DNA of 64,000 nucleotides from Candidatus Nomurabacteria bacterium (GTDB taxonomy: Bacteria > Patescibacteriota > Minisyncoccia > Phycocordibacterales > UBA918), in contig JACKGE010000002.1 of the NCBI GenBank assembly GCA_020632155.1, positions 21,293 through 85,292 of the forward strand. The letters run 5' to 3'. A program made the translations under genes and the position numbers. Within the stretch, counting starts at the first letter, position 1, and each line of letters opens with the position of its first letter. The notes under the pieces were generated by a model that saw nothing but the letters and a program-made list of their open reading frames with translations, was not told where the DNA came from and ran no database searches. Positions 982-41,074 of this stretch are shown piece after piece.

Positions 982-1947
982 TCACATCCAGCGCTTGTAC
1001 TTGAAAAACGCAAAAAAGCCAATCGATACCACCAGCATGATCCCAAGAATAATCCAAAAATCGTTTCGGTGACCAAGTATCGGTGTGGTGGTCGTGTTCA
1101 TGCCGAACATTGAAGTGAAAAGGGTGAGCGGGAAGGTAATAAAAGCCATAATGGTAAGTATCTTCATCACCTCGTTTTGTTTGGTCGATAAGAGGGCGTC
1201 GTTAGTGTCACGTAGGTCCTGCAAGGTACTTGAGAGAGCCAGCACCCGGCGAGACACTTGCTCGTACACTTGCTTAATCTCATGCACAGAGCCACTGTAG
1301 GTCTTACCAAACGAATGAACAACATCAGCCTCCAGAGTCTCTAGAACATCTTCGTGAGCGGTAATGCTATGTCGAAACGCAATTAGGCGCCGGCTCACCT
1401 TTGATATCTCAAAGAGCATCTCTTTTTCATTATCTTCAAAGATATTTTCTTCGATATCTTGCATCTTAGTCTCTAAGTAGTCGAGCTTTAGGTGCAGACC
1501 CTTGTAGATGTACAAAAGCATGACAATAAGTAGACGACCACCATTCATTTTAGCGGCAGTACCATTATCAAGAGTACTTAAAACCTCAAACTCTTTGGCA
1601 AAGCGATGTAAGACCTCTATTTCTTCAAAGCGAATGGTAATGAGGTGGCTCTTGGTGGCAATAAACTTAATTTCGTGGGGGTGGTTGATGTCGGTGCGTT
1701 TTACGACCGGAAAATCAAGGGTTATTTTGAACGCATTTTTAAGCGAAGTAGCTTCAGTATGTGGAGTCATACTGGTAAGATCGGTTGTGAATTCAGGTGG
1801 CAGGCTGCACTCAGCTGCGATCTCGCGTATTTCGTCCGGAGTGGGATTAAGGACATCAAGCCATACCACCTGCTTCTGCTTGTAACGTTCTACCATCACT
1901 ATGTATGATAGCATGCTGTTTTTTGGCAACGGCTGGCACGTGTGCAA
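982..1947 (-). CDS. corA: CorA-family Mg2+/Co2+ transporter
   Basis: C-terminal GMN motif (MFGMN) followed by two TM helices, at a CorA-like length. An alternative start at M12 (about 1914) would avoid overlap with the divergent ctpA. Confidence 0.8.
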   Translation of the reverse strand: MHTCQPLPKNSMLSYIVMVERYKQKQVVWLDVLNPTPDEIREIAAECSLPPEFTTDLTSMTPHTEATSLKNAFKITLDFPVVKRTDINHPHEIKFIATKSHLITIRFEEIEVLHRFAKEFEVLSTLDNGTAAKMNGGRLLIVMLLYIYKGLHLKLDYLETKMQDIEENIFEDNEKEMLFEISKVSRRLIAFRHSITAHEDVLETLEADVVHSFGKTYSGSVHEIKQVYEQVSRRVLALSSTLQDLRDTNDALLSTKQNEVMKILTIMAFITFPLTLFTSMFGMNTTTTPILGHRNDFWIILGIMLVVSIGFFAFFKYKRWM

Positions 1948-3290
1948 TAATACGTGTCATGAATACCCATGCTCAGACTGATACAAGGGGAGATAGCACA
2001 CACCCACGAAAGACCGAACGGCGCGGCAACTTGTTACTTGGAGTCGGGTTGGCGTTAGTGTTTGCTTCGGCAGCATTTTTCTCCGGCCTTAGTATCGGTA
2101 GTGGTGTAGCACATACCGATGCTGCTAACGAAGCCAACATCTTTAGTTTTTGGAAGAATGACGCTCCAGCTAGCGAGGTGGACCTTGGTGAATTTTGGCG
2201 CGTGTGGCACCTAATGGACGACAAGTTTGTTTTTTCATCTTCTACAGCTGCAATCTCAGACGAGGACCGCATCTATGGTGCCATCAAGGGTATGGTTGAG
2301 AGCTATGGTGACCCGTACACCGTGTTCCTAGAGCCGCAGGAAGCATCGCAGTTTGAGGAAGATATCTCGGGTAACTTCGGCGGCGTCGGTATGGAAGTTG
2401 GGATGCGTGATGGACTCGTGACGGTGGTAGCGCCACTTCCAGATACTCCGGCTGAAAAAGCAGGTATGGTGGCTGGTGACGTGGTTCTTGAGATCGATGG
2501 AGTGTCTACCGACAGCATGAGTGTTGACGAAGCCGTCGATCGTATCCGCGGTGAAGTTGGTACTGACGTGGTACTGACAATATATCGCGAGGGAGAGTTC
2601 GAATTCAAAGAGATCACTATTACACGTGGCAACATCACTATTCCGACTGTAGAGACTGAGACCGCGGGTGATGTGTTCATCATTAAGCTCTATAGCTTCA
2701 ACGCCATTTCTGAAATGAAGATGCAAGAGGCACTCCGTAGTTATATCCAAAGTGGCAAACATAAGTTAGTCCTTGATCTACGGGGTAATCCGGGAGGATT
2801 CCTTCAGAGCGCCGTAGCTATTGGCAGTTACTTCTTGCCAACCGGTAAAGTTGTCGTTCGCGAACACTTTGGTGGCGATACCGACGATCAGGTGTACCGT
2901 AGCCAAGGAAAAGTGGTTGATGAGTTTAGTCCGGAAAACTTCGTGGTGCTCTTTGATGGGGGCAGTGCCTCTGCTTCCGAGATCTTGGCTGGTGCGCTTA
3001 AGGAGCATGGTGTCGCAACTGCTATCGGTGATACGTCCTTTGGTAAAGGGTCAGTTCAAGAGTTGGTCTCACTTGGAGACGCCTCACTTAAAGTTACGGT
3101 TGCGCGCTGGCTAACTCCTAACGGAAACTCGCTTTCCGATGGTGGTCTAGAGCCGGATATCACCATCAAGCGTACGCCGCAGCAGGTGGTGGCCGGTGAG
3201 GATCCACAGCAGGAAGCCGCACTGCGCTGGCTGTCCGGAAAGCGTGACCTTCAGGAATACTTTGCATCACAGGAAACGGTAGCTGAGTAG
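1905..3290 (+). CDS. ctpA: Carboxyl-terminal processing protease (S41 peptidase) with a PDZ domain
   Basis: PDZ-like GMEVGMRDGLVTVVAPLPDTPAEKAGMVAGDVVLEIDG, then LDLRGNPGG and SASASEILAGAL S41 signatures. The start could instead be at 1959 (MNTHAQ). Confidence 0.8.
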   Translation: MIACCFLATAGTCAIIRVMNTHAQTDTRGDSTHPRKTERRGNLLLGVGLALVFASAAFFSGLSIGSGVAHTDAANEANIFSFWKNDAPASEVDLGEFWRVWHLMDDKFVFSSSTAAISDEDRIYGAIKGMVESYGDPYTVFLEPQEASQFEEDISGNFGGVGMEVGMRDGLVTVVAPLPDTPAEKAGMVAGDVVLEIDGVSTDSMSVDEAVDRIRGEVGTDVVLTIYREGEFEFKEITITRGNITIPTVETETAGDVFIIKLYSFNAISEMKMQEALRSYIQSGKHKLVLDLRGNPGGFLQSAVAIGSYFLPTGKVVVREHFGGDTDDQVYRSQGKVVDEFSPENFVVLFDGGSASASEILAGALKEHGVATAIGDTSFGKGSVQELVSLGDASLKVTVARWLTPNGNSLSDGGLEPDITIKRTPQQVVAGEDPQQEAALRWLSGKRDLQEYFASQETVAE

Positions 3291-33283: not shown

Positions 33284-34360
33284 CTAAATGCCTTCGTTTT
33301 TAAGTTCCTCTACCAGTTTTTTAGCTTTTCGTGAGAGTTTGGTTGGAATTTCAATACTGATCTTTACTAAGAAGTCACCACGACGGCTTCCGTTAGGAAC
33401 GCCCTTGGAACGAATCCGTAACATTTCACCATGTTTGATGCCGGCGGGTACTTTTATCTCAACTGTTTCGTCGAGTGTTTCTACACTGTACGTACCACCC
33501 AAAAGCGCATCACTTAACTTGATTGGTAGCGTACTTATCAGTGTATCTCCATCACGTTTGATACGATCGTGAGGCTTTACATGTATTTTTATATAGAGGT
33601 CGCCTGGGGTGCCGCCAGTCACCGCTTCACCGCGCCCGCTCATGCGAATTACTTCCCCGTTTTGAATACCAGCGGGGACGTTAATAGCTATCTCCTCTTC
33701 TTCGCGCACAATACCGGTTCCTGCGCAGTGACCACATTTTTCTTTTGGTATTGTGCCGCGACCTTGGCACGCACTACATTCACGTACAGTTGAGAAGCTG
33801 CCCATGACGCTTTGCCGTGTTTCTCGTATTTTGCCGTTTCCGTTACAGGTTGTGCAGGTCACCATGTCAGTGCCGTCTTTTGCACCAGTACCTTTACAGT
33901 GGCTACAAACATTGTTTTTAGTGAGTAAGACCTTACGGCTGGTCCCAAACACTGACTCCTTGAACGAAAGTTCGATATCGATAGAAATGTCGCGACCGCG
34001 CACTTGGCGCCCTCGCCCACCAAAACCACCGAACATGTCGCCAAAGTTCTCAAAGATGTCGTTGAGGTCAAACTCCATTCCCTGTCCGTTAAAACCCTGC
34101 GTGCCGCCCCACGAGAAGCCGCCAAATCCTTTACCACCACCAGCGCCTTGAAATGCGTGTCCGTAGGCATCGTATTCAGCTCGTTTTTTTTCGTCGCCAA
34201 GTACGGCATACGCCTCACTTATTTCTTTGAAACGCGCTTCATCACCGGTTTTTTTATCGGGATGATACTGTGCAGCCAACTTACGAAAGGCTTTTTTGAT
34301 GTCGTCACCGCTGGCGTTTTTTTCAACACCAAGGACTTGGTAGTAATCTTTTTGTGACAT
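33284..34360 (-). CDS. dnaJ: Chaperone DnaJ
   Basis: J-domain with HPD (QYHPDKK), G/F-rich region, and four CxxCxGxG zinc-finger repeats. Confidence 0.9.
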
Positions 34361-34370
34361 GTTGTTCTTG

Positions 34371-36275
34371 TTAGGTGTTGTCGTTCTTAGGTTCGTCGTT
34401 TACTTCTGCGTCCCGTACAGTTGGTTCGTCTGGGTCAGTATTGGTGTTTTTAGTAGTGTCACCGTCTGCTTGAGCAGCTTGCTGCATGATCTCTCCTATC
34501 TTTTGCAGCTCAGTTGATAACTCACTTGTTTTACTCTCAATGATAGCGGTGTCGTCTTTGTCTTTAACTTCCCGTAGCTCTGTCATCTTGGCTTCAATGG
34601 CAGTCTTTGTTTCCGCCGGTACTTTGTCACTGTGGTCTTTAAGTGCTTTCTCTGCAGTGTAGATGAGTTGATCAGCCATATTTCTGGTTTCGATGAGTTT
34701 TTTCTTCTTCTCATCTTCTCCCGCGTGTTCCTCTGCCTCTTTTTGCATACGCTCAATGTCTGTCTCTGACAAACCAGAATTAGCTTCAATACGAATTGAC
34801 TGCTCTTTACCGGTCGACTTATCCTTAGCCATGACGTTTAGAATACCGTTACTGTCCACATCAAACGTCACTTCGATCTGTGGTACACCCCGTGGCGCTG
34901 GCGGAATCCCATCAAGAATGAAGCGCCCCAGTGACTTGTTGTCAGTCGCCATTGGTCGTTCGCCTTGCGTAATGTGTATTTCAGTTGAGGTTTGATTGTC
35001 GGCAGCTGTTGAGAACACCTGTGTCTTCTTGGTAGGAATATGAGTATTCTTTTCAATGAGTTTGGTGGCCACACCGCCCATAGTCTCGATACCAAGTGAA
35101 AGTGGAATCACATCTACTAGCGTGATGTCTTGTACGTCACCTTGGAAGATACCAGCCTGAATAGCGGCACCAAGCGCCACAACTTCGTCAGGGTTTACAG
35201 TTTTGTTTGGTTCTTTACCAAACAGTTCTTTTACCGCGTTTACAATTGCTGGCATGCGAGTCTGACCGCCAACGAGAATAATCTCGTTAATTGAATCTTT
35301 TTTAAGACCAGAAGCTTCAAGAGCACGTTTGGTGATCTCGATTGAGCGGTCGATATACTCAGCAGCTAGTTCTTCTAGTTTGGCGCGGGTCAAAACAACT
35401 TGCATGTGCTTAGGCCCATCGCTGCCGGAAGTAATAAACGGAATGTTTATTTCGGTCTCACCAGAAGATGAAAGTTCCAGCTTGGCCTTTTCAGCTGCCT
35501 CATCAAGACGCTGAAGCGCCAGTGGGTCTTTGCCAAGGTCGATGCCTTCAACTTTTTTAAATTCAGCAATTAGGAATCGCACAATCTCTTGGTCAATGTC
35601 GCGGCCGCCCATGTGAGCGTCGCCATCTGTGGCTTTTACCTCAACCACATCATCACCAACCTCAAGAACGGTAACGTCAAACGTACCGCCACCAAAGTCG
35701 TAGACAACAAGCTGCTCATCTTTCTTTTTATTAAAGCCGTACGCAAGCGCTGCCGCAGTCGGTTCGTTGATGATTCGCTTTACGTCAAGCCCAGCAATTT
35801 TGCCGGCGTCCTGTGTAGCCTTGCGCTGAGCATCATTAAAGTATGCCGGTACTGTGATAACAGCTTCGGTTATTTTTTCGCCCGTCTTGGCTTCGGCATC
35901 AGCTTTTAGCTTTGAGAGAATCATGGCCGAAACTTCCTCCGGACGATAGTCCTTTTCGCCCATGTGCACGATGACACCACCGTCACTACCTGCTTTCACT
36001 TCATACGGGACGATGTCTTTGTCTTTTTGTACCGCAGTCTCGTCAAAATTGTGCCCCATGAACCGCTTAATGCCATAAATGGTGTTTTGTGGATTGGTGA
36101 CCGCCTGTCGTTTGGCAATTTGCCCCACCAGACGTTCTTTAGTTTTTGAGATCGCTACCACTGATGGTGTTGTACGATTTCCCTCAGCATTTTCAATGAT
36201 AGTTGGTTCCCCGCCTTCAATAATAGCCATTGCTGAGTTAGTTGTTCCAAGGTCAATTCCAAGTATTTTTGCCAT
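34371..36275 (-). CDS. dnaK: Chaperone DnaK (Hsp70)
   Basis: [17 protein letters not shown] and [11 protein letters not shown] Hsp70 signatures. Confidence 0.95.
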
Positions 36276-36307
36276 ATCGTAATTTCTTAAATATGAGTAA
36301 CGTAAGT

Positions 36308-36922
36308 TTAATTTTGGTAGGTACCCACAGTAACGCGTGCCGGTCTAAGTAGCGTTGCATAATTGCCTTCAGTGCGCTCATAACCAAGCTGCAGTACGGA
36401 AATGACCATGTGGTCGCTGGCGGCATCAGATACTGGTACGTTTCCCACCGCTTCGTGCTTGTTAGGGTCAAATACCTCTCCGGTTGGATCAAGTTCAGTA
36501 ACCCCAAACCCACTGAGTATAGTTTGCAATTGTCCGTAAATACCTTCTATGCCAGTTCGCCACTCTTGACTTACCGCCTGCCACTTCGCTTCGTCGCTCA
36601 TGGCCATGTGAAAACTGTCACATAGCGGCAGTAATTTAGTGATAAACGCATCAGTGGCCCGCTGTACGTCACGCTCGCGCTCATGCTCGAGGCGTTTTTT
36701 GGCGTTCAAAAAATCGGCTTTTACACGCTGAAGATCTTCGAGCACTTGACTGCGCTGCTCGTTGCATTCCTTTAGTTTGCCGCGCAGATCTTTTAGCTTA
36801 TCTGCCCCAAGTGTTTCAATTGCTTCGATCTCAGGGTCCTCTAGATGATCTTCTCCCGTGAACTCGATCTTTTCTGCCTGCTCGTCACGTTCCTTATCTG
36901 ACATAACGAACGCATTATACAT
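36308..36922 (-). CDS. grpE: Nucleotide exchange factor GrpE
   Basis: GrpE-like coiled coil plus C-terminal beta domain; position upstream of dnaK. Confidence 0.85.
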
Positions 36923-37159
36923 TTTGTTTTTATGTAAGTCAAAAATTAGAAAACATAGTCTTTACTTGAGTATTTTACGTACAAGAGTATTGTCAACTAT
37001 TGAAAAAAGTTGTGTACTAACAACTCCTCTTGTCAGATTGCTACAATGATGGTGCCACTGATGTTTCAGTGGGAATGTGCTGAGAATGCTCTCGTTAGTT
37101 TTCTCGCCAGCCTTGGAACTCTGGTAGACGTGCGCGCAAGCGCACCTCACGCCAGCCTA

Positions 37160-37320
37160 CTTAGGTTCTGTGTTGGACAAGTAGTGAAATGCACATGCAC
37201 CCTCGTGGTACATGGTCCGTGGAGGTTGGGTTCGTTCCTCGAACTTGATCGGACAGCAAAACAGTTTCCGCAACACAGACCAAAAAACTCCCTTCGGGGA
37301 GTTTTTTGGTACGCTGTTTC
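37160..37320 (+). ncRNA. Candidate structured RNA of about 150 nt ending in a strong intrinsic terminator; family unknown and strand assignment tentative
   Basis: Closing stem ggttctgtgttgg / ccgcaacacagacc enclosing several sub-hairpins (e.g. gtgcgc-GCAA-gcgcac just upstream, gttcg-ttcct-cgaac), then aaaaaactccc-ttcg-gggagtttttt at 37282-37307. Confidence 0.3.
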
Positions 37321-37376
37321 AACCTTAAAGGCTGGCGCCCCAAACGATAAAAATGAAGTGCGGAACAAGGCGGACA

Positions 37377-37422
37377 AGAAAAAAGACCCGAGTGGGGCAA
37401 CAGCCCAGGCAGGGTCTTTTTT
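37377..37422. terminator. Intrinsic terminator downstream of rpsI (minus strand); could also terminate plus-strand transcription
   Basis: aaaaaagaccc...gggtctttttt nested GC hairpin flanked by A and T runs. Confidence 0.65.
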
Positions 37423-37451
37423 CGTAGGACAACGCAGTTAAGCATTCATTT

Positions 37452-37859
37452 TTATCGTTTGGACCATTGTGGGCGACGGCGTGCTTTACGAAGTCCAAAC
37501 TTCTTTCGTTCGACTGAACGTGGATCTCGTTTGAGGTAACCAGCTTTCTTAAGGACGCTACGGCGATCAGTTTTTTCTTTTACCAAAGCGCGAGCAATAC
37601 CAAGACGAATAGCTTCAGCTTGAGCAGAAAGACCACCACCGGAGACCTTAGCAGTTACACTGTAATGCTCAATGCCAGCGTCCTCAGTTTCAAGTACACT
37701 ACGCACATCTTTTTGCAGAGCTTCGTGCTCAAAGTAGGTAGCAAGTTCCTTGTCGTTAACTAGGACTGAAGTCTCCTTGGCAGGTACAATGCGAACGCGC
37801 GCCGTTGCAGTCTTGCGTCGTCCAATACCTTCTGTATATGTGTCTTTTTTGGTTGCCAT
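37452..37859 (-). CDS. rpsI: 30S ribosomal protein S9
   Basis: [12 protein letters not shown] ... [16 protein letters not shown]. Confidence 0.9.
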
Positions 37860-37866
37860 ATAAATT

Positions 37867-38229
37867 TTACTCAGTTACTTCAAGATTATGCATCATTGGC
37901 TTCTGCAGCTTGTTCTTTGGTAGCATGCCTTTTACTGTACGCTTGATGACCTCCGCATACCCGCGACGCTTCGCAAGGTGTTCCAGGGTCTCTACTCGAC
38001 GGCCACCTGGGTAACCTGAATATGATTGATAGATATCAGTTTCTTTTCCTTCACGCACATCAAGCTTACTTGCGTTGACGATCTTTACGGTAACATCTGG
38101 ATTTTGATGACGTACAAAATCAGGGGTATTCTTACCCATCAAAAGTGAGGCTGCTTCTGTAGCTACGCGCCCTAGACGCTTTCCCGCAGCATCAATGGTA
38201 TATTCTGTTTTCTGGCTGTCTGTCGTCAT
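37867..38229 (-). CDS. rplM: 50S ribosomal protein L13
   Basis: L13-like sequence in the canonical rplM-rpsI arrangement. Confidence 0.85.
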
Positions 38230-38233
38230 AGAT

Positions 38234-38590
38234 TTAGGCTACAAATTCGATTATAGACTCGTCTCGTCCCGCTTCAGTGCGGCCGGCTTTTACGATGCGA
38301 GTGTATCCCCCACTACGCTCTTGGTACTGTGGAGCTATCTCTTCAAATAACTTTTTGAGTACCAAGGCTTTTGGCTCACCAAGGGCGGTAGCGGCTTGGC
38401 GCCTGGAAGCCAAAGTGTTCTTTTTACCGTACGTAACAAGACGCTCAGCAAGGGGCCGCAACTCCTTAGCTTTGGCGGTAGTCGTCTTGATCTTACCTTT
38501 TGTGATGAGAGCGATAGCAAGCCCACGCAAAAGCGCAGTACGTCCTCGACGTGTGCGTCCCAAAGTTCGTGTTTTGTCAGCGTGTCTCAT
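38234..38590 (-). CDS. rplQ: 50S ribosomal protein L17
   Basis: MRH...KAKELRPLAERLVT...GGYTRI L17 pattern; follows rpoA. Confidence 0.9.
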   Translation of the reverse strand: MRHADKTRTLGRTRRGRTALLRGLAIALITKGKIKTTTAKAKELRPLAERLVTYGKKNTLASRRQAATALGEPKALVLKKLFEEIAPQYQERSGGYTRIVKAGRTEAGRDESIIEFVA

Positions 38591-38597
38591 ATCTCAA

Positions 38598-39560
38598 TTA
38601 TTCAGCTAGATTAACACCAAGGTTAGCTAGCAGATCAGTGATCTCATCAAGACCTTTTGGTCCGATGCCGTCGAGCGCAAGAATATCATCTTTTTTCTTT
38701 CGCACAAGGCCTCCAATGGTGCGGATGCTTGCTTCCTCCAGAGCAGCTAGGGTACGGGCAGAAAGATCAAGAGTCTCAATGCGGGTCTTTAGCACGTCAG
38801 GGTCAACAGCTTCTGTTTTTTCTGTCGCTGCGACTTCAACTTCAGATTCAGCTGGCTGCGTCTCTGGCTCCTTAAAACCTATCACTGCCTTAAGTTGGTG
38901 GATCATAATCTCGATAGCATCCTCGACCGCCTCACGGGGAGTCATGGTGCCGTCTGTCTCAACAAAAAGTCGGAGGCGGTTATAGTCGGTACGATCACCA
39001 ACGCGCATGTTTTCAACCTCGTAGTTAGCGCGGCGGATAGGAGTGAATACCGCATCTAGTGCAATGCTACCAATGTCTACCTTTTCCTTCTGGTGTACTT
39101 CACGTGGTACGTACCCAAGACCACGCTCTACATGCATCTCAATCTCAAGGGCTGTTCCCTTGGCAGTGATTTCAGCGATGCGCTGTTCAGGATTCAAAAT
39201 ATCAACTTGTGATGGAGCCTCAATATCACCAGCGGTAATGACACCAGCACCATTTTTCTTAAGCGTGATGGTCATTGGTTCGTCACCATGTAAGGCCAAG
39301 CGAATACGCTTGATGTTTAGGAGGATGGTAATCACGTCCTCTTTAACACCATCAAGAGCCTCAAACTCGTGTTTAACACCGTTTATCTTTACGTGTGTAA
39401 TGGCAGCACCCGGAAGTGAGGAGAGAATGATGCGGCGGAGTGAATTACCTAAGGTGTGTCCATAACCTGGAAACAGACCATCTATCTCGTAAATACCACG
39501 AAATTCCTCTTCTTTGACGACTCGTGGCTTGCTTGGTAGGGCTACGTTTGTTTCTAACAT
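38598..39560 (-). CDS. rpoA: DNA-directed RNA polymerase alpha subunit
   Basis: Alpha N-terminal domain (GYGHTLGNSLRRILLSS) plus C-terminal domain. Confidence 0.9.
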   Translation of the reverse strand: MLETNVALPSKPRVVKEEEFRGIYEIDGLFPGYGHTLGNSLRRIILSSLPGAAITHVKINGVKHEFEALDGVKEDVITILLNIKRIRLALHGDEPMTITLKKNGAGVITAGDIEAPSQVDILNPEQRIAEITAKGTALEIEMHVERGLGYVPREVHQKEKVDIGSIALDAVFTPIRRANYEVENMRVGDRTDYNRLRLFVETDGTMTPREAVEDAIEIMIHQLKAVIGFKEPETQPAESEVEVAATEKTEAVDPDVLKTRIETLDLSARTLAALEEASIRTIGGLVRKKKDDILALDGIGPKGLDEITDLLANLGVNLAE

Positions 39561-39594
39561 ACTTGGTGCTTAGTTCTATTAAGGTCGTTAACTA

Positions 39595-40209
39595 CTATCG
39601 ACTGTAGTATTCCAGTACTTGCTCAGGGTCAAACAGTGTTTCAGACGGTTCGTAGGAAGGCGTACCAGTCACTGAACCGGACATTTTCTTGATATCAAAA
39701 GTGAGCCAGCCCGGAACACCGGCGGCTTCATAACTTTCAGCCAAATTGCTAAAGAGGAGGCTAGACTTACTACCTTCGCGCACAGATATAACATCACCTT
39801 TGCGTACTTGGTGTGATGGAATAGTAAACTTTTTACCATTTACCGTAACGTGGCCATGAGATACCATCTGACGGGCCATTTGTCGTGTTTTTGCAAGGCC
39901 TAATCGATAGACTGTGTTATCAAGACGCATTTCAAGAAGCTTGATGAGATGAGAGATCGGCTGATCGCTCTTTTCGGTAGACAGATCAATGTATTTTCGT
40001 AGCTGCTTTTCAGAAATGCCATACGTAAATCGCATCTTTTGCTTTTCAATGAGCTGGCGTTTGAAGTCGCTCATTGCACCCGGACGACGGTTGGTGCGAC
40101 GACCGCCACGCGCCTCAGAAAGTGCAAACTTTTGTGTTTGTGTCTTTTCGAAGATTGGGGCTCCCAGTCGTTTAGCGATTTTGAATTTTGGACCTATTTT
40201 CATACGCAA
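39595..40209 (-). CDS. rpsD: 30S ribosomal protein S4
   Basis: S4 N-terminus (GPKFKIAKRLG), S4 RNA-binding domain. Confidence 0.9.
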   Translation of the reverse strand: MRMKIGPKFKIAKRLGAPIFEKTQTQKFALSEARGGRRTNRRPGAMSDFKRQLIEKQKMRFTYGISEKQLRKYIDLSTEKSDQPISHLIKLLEMRLDNTVYRLGLAKTRQMARQMVSHGHVTVNGKKFTIPSHQVRKGDVISVREGSKSSLLFSNLAESYEAAGVPGWLTFDIKKMSGSVTGTPSYEPSETLFDPEQVLEYYSR

Positions 40210-40217
40210 ATAATTGA

Positions 40218-40649
40218 TTACACACGACGTGCCTTAGGTGGACGCGGACCATTATGTGGTACCGGAGTCATGTCTGATATTCTAGTCACAGCAATACCCT
40301 TTCCAGCAAATGCACGAAGTGCAGACTCCCGTCCAGCGCCTACACCACGAATGACAACCTCAGCGTCTTTCATTCCCATTTGCTGAGCTTTTTCGCCGAT
40401 GATCTCGCCTACCTTTGCGGCTGCAAACGGAGTGCTTTTGCGTGAACCCTTAAAGCCAAGAGCGCCGCTAGAGGCAGCGATCAGGCTATTACCTTTGGTG
40501 TCGCACAGCGTGACGATAGTGTTATTGAAAGTCGCCAAGATGTTGAGTTTACCACTTGCTACTTTCTTTTTCGGGATACGATTAAGAGCTCTGGATGTAC
40601 CAGCTACGTCTGAACCGCCTCCCTTTTTGATGATTCGTTTCTTACCCAT
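40218..40649 (-). CDS. rpsK: 30S ribosomal protein S11
   Basis: Canonical S11 core (GFKGSRKSTPFAAA...). Confidence 0.9.
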   Translation of the reverse strand: MGKKRIIKKGGGSDVAGTSRALNRIPKKKVASGKLNILATFNNTIVTLCDTKGNSLIAASSGALGFKGSRKSTPFAAAKVGEIIGEKAQQMGMKDAEVVIRGVGAGRESALRAFAGKGIAVTRISDMTPVPHNGPRPPKARRV

Positions 40650-40684
40650 AGATCAATACGAATAAATAATAACTGTGCAAACTT

Positions 40685-41074
40685 TTAAGTCTTCTCAAGC
40701 TTACGACGACCGCTACCCATAGTCTTTTTAGCTCCCTTGAGGGTGCGAGCGTTGGTCTTGGTGCGCTGGCCACGCAGTGGTAAACGTTTAGCATGACGAC
40801 TGCCGCGATAGCTTTGAATGTCTTTGAGTCGCTTGATATCACTCGCGATCGAGCGCTTTAGCTCTCCCTCGATAGTGAACGCTTCAACCTTTTCGCGCAC
40901 AGCGTTTTCCTGATCGGTCGAAAGGTCTTCTGGCTTGCTGTCAGCAGCGATCTTGAGTTCAGACAACAGTGCCTTAGAGCGAGAAAGGCCAATACCATAT
41001 ACAGCCGTAAGACCGTACGCAAGTTGCTTGTTGTCTGGAATGTTGATACCTGAGATTCTCATATGGTGATACAA
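40685..41074 (-). CDS. rpsM: 30S ribosomal protein S13
   Basis: MRISGINIPDNKQLAYGLTAVYGIG. The start is probably at 41062. Confidence 0.9.
   Translation of the reverse strand: MYHHMRISGINIPDNKQLAYGLTAVYGIGLSRSKALLSELKIAADSKPEDLSTDQENAVREKVEAFTIEGELKRSIASDIKRLKDIQSYRGSRHAKRLPLRGQRTKTNARTLKGAKKTMGSGRRKLEKT

Follow-up and report, generated by a model that had tools for sequence, protein, structure and literature searches.

A predicted pseudoknotted RNA gene divergent from grpE in a clade of Paceibacteria-like bacteria

The window analysed here, a 64,000-nucleotide (64-kb) stretch of Candidatus Nomurabacteria bacterium contig JACKGE010000002.1 (positions 21,293 to 85,292), carries a run of minus-strand genes comprising rpsM, rpsK, rpsD, rpoA, rplQ, rplM, rpsI (37452-37859), grpE, dnaK and dnaJ. 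Between rpsI and grpE lies a gap of 529 nucleotides (nt), counted to the longest grpE open reading frame (ORF; 36308-36922, minus strand), or of ~547 nt if grpE starts at its seventh codon (Met7, ATG at 36904-36902). An earlier sequence-only reading had called this gap large at ~520 bp, which our measurement bears out, and had proposed within it a structured RNA to which it assigned no strand. The features of the gap exceed chance: compared with shuffled sequences it folds with z = -4.8 on the plus strand and z = -5.6 on the minus strand, and the GNRA-capped hairpin and long-range stem that had been singled out there are conserved in relatives with compensatory changes. Judged by sequence comparison, the gap is predicted to harbour an independent non-coding RNA gene on the plus strand, which runs antisense to its neighbours on both sides and diverges from grpE. 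Its features are as follows.

37039-37047, plus strand: extended -10 promoter TGcTACAAT, conserved as TGnTAnnnT
~37052-37307, plus strand: predicted RNA gene of ~255 nt, including the terminator U-tract and counted from an approximate start of transcription, matched by covariance models R1 and R2
37055-37072, plus strand: P1, 5′ hairpin CCACUGA/UCAGUGG (94% paired in 23 sequences; 6 of 8 pairs with compensatory changes)
37071-37078, plus strand: GGGA(A)UGU, the most conserved element, after P1 and overlapping its last two G; GGGAAUGU in the window
37082-37105, plus strand: P2, hairpin GAGAA/UUCUC with a large loop (84% paired; 7 of 7 pairs compensatory)
37115-37120, plus strand: 5′ strand of P3, GGAACU, pairing with 37263-37269 (long-range; 91% paired)
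37121-37155, plus strand: P4, hairpin CUGGU/GCCAG plus GUGCGC/GCGCAC (helices 4 and 5; 11 of 11 pairs compensatory)
37157-37184, plus strand: P5, hairpin CUACUU/AAGUAG, whose loop holds the pseudoknot 5′ strand (65% paired, the weakest helix)
37164-37175, plus strand: pseudoknot 5′ strand GGUUCUGUGUUG, pairing with 37271-37281 (78% paired; 8 of 8 pairs compensatory)
37190-37258, plus strand: Pc, helix of UGC (37190-37192) with GCA (37256-37258), enclosing P6 and P7 (88% paired; 4 of 4 pairs compensatory)
37194-37214, plus strand: P6, hairpin CAUGCACC/GGUACAUG (92% paired; 6 of 7 pairs compensatory)
37215-37254, plus strand: P7, GUCCG/CGGAC, with the GGAGG junction and hairpin P8 inside it
37221-37225, plus strand: GGAGG in the P7 junction, drawn unpaired (20 of 22 sequences, by our own reading of the alignment)
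37230-37234 and 37240-37244, plus strand: P8, hairpin GUUCG/CGAAC within P7
37263-37281, plus strand: 3′ strand of P3, AGUUUCC (37263-37269), then the pseudoknot 3′ strand CAACACAGACC (37271-37281)
37282-37307, plus strand: Rho-independent terminator AAAAAACUCCC-UUCG-GGGAGUUUUUU, a perfect hairpin with a U-tract

Related contigs were fetched with GrpE as the query, and the gaps were then compared. Among GTDB species representatives the closest GrpE proteins share 43-47% identity, and the four nearest belong to candidate-phyla metagenome-assembled genomes, three labelled Paceibacteria/Paceibacterota and one Saccharibacteria, which makes the source an uncultured member of the Candidate Phyla Radiation (CPR), Paceibacteria in type. 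The rpsI-gap-grpE synteny recurs in related contigs, with large gaps again. Direct MAFFT alignment of the first relatives' gaps was too divergent to read, yet it revealed conserved blocks, namely TGnTAnnnT, a hairpin followed by GGGAUGU, GGAGG(G)U, and a CAAAA tail running into a hairpin and U-tract. With nhmmer and covariance model R1, the element was found in 22 further distinct metagenomic loci, always upstream of grpE and on the opposite strand. This position is kept in locus L043, although the upstream neighbour is not rpsI, and in L037 and L042 despite extra ORFs between rpsI and the RNA. R1 matches the window at 37052-37286 (86.7 bits). For R2, a covariance model built from 20 relatives with the window left out, the sole match in 64 kb is at 37055-37286 on the plus strand (34.2 bits, E 1e-9). 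As a negative control, the model was run over unrelated viral contigs totalling 716 kb and matched nothing, and the pattern GGGATGT-N14-19-CACGATC occurred in these contigs only as chance matches, none of them matched by the model. From the R2 match, the position divergent from grpE with promoter and terminator, and the presence of the pseudoknot, GGGAUGU and GGAGG, we class the window copy as a member of the family.

The proposed gene has boundaries of its own. The extended -10 motif TGnTAnnnT stands at a constant distance 5′ of the P1 hairpin in 20 of 21 homologues (4-6 nt in relatives), and a CAAAA tail followed by a GC-rich hairpin and U-tract is present in all 21 full-length homologues. 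We assigned the RNA to the plus strand because the extended -10 is conserved, because G-U cells in the helices outnumber A-C cells when read on that strand (130 versus 58), and because of the orientation of the terminator. The hairpin at 37282-37307 had been described as a perfect terminator functional on either strand. Its stem is indeed perfect; the general bidirectional role does not stand, since the conservation of the extended -10 and of plus-strand blocks in relatives marks it as the terminator of this transcript. With the hairpin and U-tract of an intrinsic terminator, it is predicted to end the RNA gene itself, and its symmetry could additionally allow it to halt read-through from rpsI. 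The conserved RNA, at ~255 nt including the 5′ hairpin and terminator, is longer than the ~150 nt first suggested. Predicted to be a separate gene, equipped with a promoter, a terminator and a covarying fold and lacking any Rfam or ARAGORN match, it otherwise agrees with the candidate novel or divergent small RNA (sRNA) that the sequence-only reading had put forward.

The fold would comprise the hairpins P1 and P2, a long-range helix P3 around the GNRA-capped P4, around P5 and around a three-way unit in which Pc, P6 and P7 meet, and a pseudoknot joining the P5 loop to the 3′ tail. A first model was tested on a 23-sequence model alignment (ten helices, 49 pairs). In its helices 85.9% of cells were paired, versus 34-46% when the 3′ partners were slid by 1-3 columns, and compensatory changes on both sides were found in 43 of the 49 pairs. 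The covariation score of 0.454, versus ~0.1 for slid partners, was reached by none of 500 shuffles. The pseudoknot, Pc and P5 lay outside the model structure, having been found by eye and by a column-pair scan; they were 76% paired versus 28-46% for slid partners, with compensatory changes in 17 of 17 pairs. About 66 base pairs of the predicted fold are backed by compensatory changes, among them the GCAA hairpin and the pseudoknot.

Several elements of the fold correspond to those seen earlier in the window alone. The GNRA-capped hairpin is present as GUGCGC/GCGCAC at 37130-37145, with its GCAA cap at 37136-37139, and forms part of P4; the GCAA loop is conserved, with UACG instead in L042, L045 and L047, which belong to one sub-branch. 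The 12-bp long-range stem, at 37164-37175 and 37271-37281, is the conserved pseudoknot, which in the window has 11 pairs and one bulged U. Its covarying versions include GUAACUAC/GUAGUUAC, GUAGUUA/UAACUAC, GUGACUAU/AUAGUCAC and AUGAUGGG/CCCAUCAU. As this stem between the P5 loop and the tail crosses P3, the predicted fold is truly pseudoknotted. P3 itself covaries as UGAGU/ACUCA, UGAAUCA/UGAUUCA, UGAACUG/CAGUUCA and CGAAUC/GAUUCG, and P7/P8 as ACUUC/GAAGU, ACUCCC/GGGAGU, ACCUU/GAGGU and GUCCG/CGGAC. In the window, Pc has only 3 bp, and the P2 loop, which carries CGAU in most relatives, is divergent. A kink-turn reading of the P7 junction was rejected, as its tandem G-A pairs do not fit.

The strongest conservation falls outside the helices, in GG(G)AUGU, in the CGAU of the P2 loop (not in the window), in CUUUGA before P3 and in GGAGG(G)U within P7. 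In one alignment (A4), G22, G23, A25, U26, G27 and U28 of the GGGAUGU element are invariant, and the consensus concurs; a column-pair scan found no covarying partner for it. The mean predicted unpaired probability of GGAGG is 0.69, versus 0.36 for the whole RNA. On balance we lean towards an independent plus-strand gene whose product is a trans-acting folded RNA presenting G-rich elements to a partner. Such an RNA would act as a stable folded molecule rather than as a leader, antisense RNA or mRNA, with helices and a pseudoknot that would offer GGGAUGU and GGAGG(G)U to that partner in a set geometry.

One candidate partner is the ribosome. Shine-Dalgarno (SD)-like motifs (GGAG, GAGG or AGGA at -20 to -4) precede 3 of 51 long ORFs in the window, versus a background of 7.5%, and none of dnaJ, dnaK, rpsI, rplM, rplQ, rpoA, rpsD, rpsK and rpsM (starts listed from 33284 to 41074). 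An exposed and conserved GGAGG is conspicuous because the genes of the window lack SD sequences. We raise as a tentative guess, doubtful as it stands, that the CCUCC tail of 16S rRNA is the pairing partner of GGAGG(G)U and that the RNA is an SD mimic docking on 30S subunits. The RNA might represent a hitherto undescribed, clade-specific class of large pseudoknotted RNA acting on the translation or proteostasis machinery, for example through GGAGG on an otherwise unused anti-SD tail, a proposal that we hold to be rather improbable. That the RNA always diverges from the grpE promoter hints that it is regulated jointly with the heat-shock operon, but simple inherited synteny would explain it equally well.

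A number of observations weigh against a trans-acting RNA with G-rich docking elements, or against details of it. The ends of the RNA are set by sequence, the start being inferred from the -10 and the 3′ end from the terminator. Because the 23-sequence alignment had been fitted to the model, the pairing figures of the first-model helices are inflated; this leaves the test of the pseudoknot, Pc and P5 unaffected. Divergence within the family is greatest in the window copy, in which the model misaligned several helices; when its helices are assigned by hand, all are present. As to the SD-like element, CCUCC in the 3′ tail of 16S rRNA is assumed here, the 16S rRNA gene of this genome lying outside the window. 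GGAGG occurs 65 times in the window against 70 expected, neither enriched nor depleted, and at this chance level nothing indicates that SD/anti-SD pairing matters in the organism. Many members read GGAGGGU, so that pairing to the canonical tail extends only with a bulge, and L044 lacks a clean GGAGG.

The P2 region of one relative, L046 (~1078-1095, minus strand), contains GAUCACCUCCUU in its loop and 3′ strand, able to pair with the P2 5′ strand or with the conserved GGAGG. This string matches the canonical 16S rRNA 3′ terminus exactly. A reading of the P2 loop and 3′ strand as a mimic of the 16S tail was rejected as a feature of the family, GAUCAC being found in ~7 of 22 members and absent from the window.

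A protein could equally be what the G-rich elements serve, and we weigh a protein partner about as heavily as the SD-mimic guess, with mRNA base-pairing, catalysis and self-assembly well below. In its strict form this alternative holds that the RNA is a sponge or ribonucleoprotein scaffold, like 6S, CsrB/RsmZ, Y RNA or OLE, with no direct link to the ribosome and with the G-rich elements and the P2 loop as protein sites; we consider it possible but not probable. Among large structured bacterial RNAs whose function is known, the majority act together with proteins, and a complex conserved fold with few, short and strict unpaired motifs would suit such a role, as would the several GGA triplets in some members, such as L049. 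However, GGA is not repeated in hairpin loops, unlike in CsrB-type RNAs, and no conserved candidate partner gene lies beside the RNA except grpE-dnaK-dnaJ.

In a base-pairing sRNA, GGGAUGU or GGAGGGU would be a seed for mRNAs, possibly those of a heat-shock regulon. Seeds are typically the most conserved unpaired part of such RNAs, and the divergent control region shared with the grpE operon would fit. Yet the complement ACATCCC occurs 2 times in 64 kb versus 4.7 expected, counted irrespective of gene positions, the start regions of grpE and dnaK lack complementarity, and ~66 conserved base pairs including a pseudoknot far exceed the needs of a seed-bearing sRNA, which makes this reading unlikely. 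Still less likely is a catalytic or self-assembling RNA, that is, a new ribozyme or an RNA-only multimer. The pseudoknotted multi-helix fold with conserved nucleotides concentrated in junctions is of the right kind, and most P2 loops hold self-complementary GAUC, CAUG or UCGA, which would permit kissing dimers. However, by our own estimate a palindromic 4-mer is expected in about half of random 13-nt loops, the window loop has none, and the RNA bears no likeness to Rfam ribozyme families.

That the element is a highly divergent version of a universal RNA, namely RNase P RNA, transfer-messenger RNA (tmRNA), signal recognition particle (SRP) RNA or 6S RNA, we find hard to credit. Housekeeping RNAs are often aberrant in CPR bacteria, and the size ranges overlap. 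The sequence-only reading had compared these four by eye and seen no convincing match, in agreement with the Rfam comparison, which is silent on the region and on the homologous loci. Rfam 15 at the gathering threshold gave no match in the whole 64 kb; with E up to 10 on 36700-37700 and up to 5-10 on 11 homologous loci, only terminator-like noise was returned. This included no match to the RNase P RNA models RF00010 and RF00011 in the 64 kb, in 36700-37700 or in the 11 homologous loci, and none to the SRP RNA models in the window or those loci. For tmRNA there is neither an Rfam match nor an ARAGORN gene in the window, in which ARAGORN reported 0 transfer RNA or tmRNA genes. Rfam also gave no match to 6S RNA, and in the covarying fold the 5′ end forms a local hairpin while the core is multi-branched and pseudoknotted. 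Such a fold resembles no centrally bubbled rod, no tRNA-like domain and no P4-type core, and the RNA is confined to one clade and missing in close relatives with the same synteny, unlike a universal RNA. Minus-strand ACAGAACC/GAGGAAC was considered as the RNase P elements CR-V/CR-I and rejected: the partner strands do not pair, the RNA lies on the plus strand and Rfam gives no match.

By analogy, the closest systems in kind would be the orphan large structured bacterial RNAs OLE, raiA, ROOL, GOLLD and HEARO. Shared with these are a stand-alone gene of 200-plus nt, many covarying helices and a pseudoknot, few strict junction nucleotides, a narrow phylogenetic range and a context uninformative on function. 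Unlike them, the present RNA has CPR/Paceibacteria-like hosts and a fixed grpE-divergent position unique to it; in Rfam 15 it matches none of them in sequence or structure, and a search of the accessible literature found no description of such an RNA. With 6S RNA it has in common a length of a few hundred nt, its own promoter and terminator and a would-be action in trans, whereas 6S RNA is an irregular rod with a central bubble from 5′/3′ pairing and the grpE-divergent RNA has a local 5′ hairpin and a pseudoknotted core. RNase P RNA resembles it in being multi-helical, with long-range pairings, a GNRA-capped hairpin and, in the smallest bacterial examples, a similar size; however, no P4-type consensus was recognised, and the grpE-divergent RNA is clade-restricted and lost in close relatives. 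SD decoys and thermometers (ROSE, fourU) invite comparison through the exposed conserved GGAGG and the adjacent heat-shock operon, but thermometers hide the SD within the regulated mRNA, whereas here a separate transcript runs on the opposite strand and grpE lacks a leader and an SD.

In six frames, the longest stop-free stretches of L063, L057 and L109 measure 31-37 codons, and insertions and deletions among close relatives are not multiples of three. In the window an ORF of 143 amino acids (37010-37441, plus strand) overlies the RNA gene and is not conserved. Gene-caller ORFs without a Pfam match also lie over the RNA at 2482-2877 of L035, 1021-1314 of L039, 2253-2450 of L043 and 2684-2830 of L037. 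Neither frame nor length being conserved, the gene-caller ORFs over the RNA gene are probably spurious. A small ORF from the AUG of GGGAUGU was rejected: its frame shifts between L046 and L109, and in the window a stop follows after 2 codons. The remaining alternative, a small protein gene or, as had also been proposed, a long structured 5′ leader or thermometer of grpE-dnaK-dnaJ, could appeal to the position upstream of the heat-shock operon, the gene-caller ORFs and the 143-aa ORF, but is contradicted by the evidence and next to negligible, given the opposite strand, the spacing of no more than 9-10 nt that almost every relative has between the grpE -10 and the ATG, and the lack of a conserved ORF in any frame.

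Two minus-strand features flank the RNA gene.

36942-36914, minus strand: grpE promoter TTGACT (36942-36937), 17-nt spacer, TATAAT (36919-36914), scan score 11/12
37377-37422, minus strand: terminator-like hairpin and U-run directly 3′ of rpsI, in both the minimum free energy and centroid folds; context, outside the RNA

The latter had been named as a terminator after rpsI, and a hairpin with a U-run does appear there in minus-strand folds; rpsI of L039 is followed by a comparable element. A generic promoter and terminator scan missed both this terminator, whose stem is branched, and that of the RNA gene, whose A/U arms absorb the U-tract. The scan recovered the grpE promoters, and did not report the RNA-gene promoter owing to its weak -35. 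In the window, 9 nt separate the grpE -10 from the ATG at 36904. The longest grpE ORF opens with six codons that relatives do not conserve, and Met7 never varies among 25 GrpE relatives; the true start is probably this ATG (36904-36902) rather than the first one at 36922, just upstream of the -10. Nearly all relatives read CTTTACA, 17 nt, TATAAT, 9-10 nt, ATG. Because this conserved layout puts the -10 9-10 nt from the ATG, the grpE-dnaK-dnaJ mRNA appears leaderless or nearly so, with nothing upstream of 36920 in it.

A HAIR-like half-site of the regulator HspR, CTTGAGT, had also been noted near the grpE start. The half-site is present, and its meaning as an operator does not hold: the site at 36965-36985 has 3 mismatches to CTTGAGT-N7-ACTCAAG, the second half matching at 4 of 7 positions; such 3-mismatch sites number 3 in the window versus 3.26 expected by chance; and the site is absent from the corresponding region of relatives. 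The likeness to HspR/HAIR or HrcA/CIRCE control is limited to this one half-site. A search of the 64-kb window for CIRCE, TTAGCACTC-N9-GAGTGCTAA, at up to 3 mismatches gave 0 matches. Inspected by eye, none of the ORFs upstream of grpE in RNA-less relatives is HrcA-like, and three are rpsI. A second promoter-like site (TTGACA, 16 nt, AATACT; 36969-36996, minus strand; 10/12) overlaps the HAIR-like half-site ~70 nt upstream of the main promoter and is not conserved in relatives.

In a neighbour-joining tree of GrpE, the RNA-positive loci form essentially one clade, with apparent loss in L053 and L073 and one outlier, L124. The RNA-less close relatives L073, L082 and L085 have rpsI directly upstream of grpE, with gaps of ~90-300 nt and no model match. 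Since the positives form one clade and close relatives without the RNA keep rpsI-grpE with short gaps, we interpret the RNA as a lineage-specific gene, vertically inherited within one Paceibacteria-like (CPR) clade, and not as a universal housekeeping RNA. The rpsI-grpE synteny would be older, with the RNA gene apparently either gained by the clade or lost from L073, L082 and L085. In L041, two tandem copies stand upstream of one grpE (1768-2009 and 2080-2250, minus strand). The grpE-proximal copy, of ~170-190 nt, lacks the P4-P6 domain and retains P1, GGGAUGU, P2, P3, the GGAGG junction and the tail, which suggests a minimal core of the RNA.

CPR/Patescibacteria genomes are tiny, and a conserved non-coding stretch of ~250 nt is unlikely to persist in them without a role; to our knowledge almost nothing has been reported on regulatory or structural RNAs in these bacteria. 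The comparative data give a well-supported case for a new RNA family, with promoter, terminator, conserved motifs and pseudoknot defined. With a covariance model in hand, the family can be mapped across metagenomes and metatranscriptomes, and the RNA can be made in vitro; in practice, gene callers currently annotate spurious ORFs across the gene. The promoter partnership with grpE-dnaK-dnaJ, the near-leaderless operon and the SD-poor genes provide testable hypotheses on the control of translation or heat shock where the operon has none of the usual HrcA/CIRCE or HspR/HAIR elements. If the RNA docks on ribosomes, organisms whose regulatory repertoires are minimal would possess a novel type of regulatory RNA directed at the ribosome, modulating ribosomes together with the divergent leaderless grpE-dnaK-dnaJ operon.

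Further conserved blocks lie between the divergent promoters of the RNA and grpE in L046 (~1140-1265) and in the same region of L054, L056, L057, L063 and L109. They include TTGTCAAAC, within the RNA promoter, TTGACA on the grpE strand, and the imperfect inverted repeat CTTTGAACAATACGTTGCAAACAAAAGG. These blocks, weakly visible in the window, may be a shared operator. In L109, L037, L041 and L124, an additional 100-250 nt separate the conserved grpE promoter block GACGTATAAT...GTCT from the grpE ORF, and in L109 the usual position of the grpE ATG reads ACG; the 5′ end of grpE has apparently been remodelled in these lineages.

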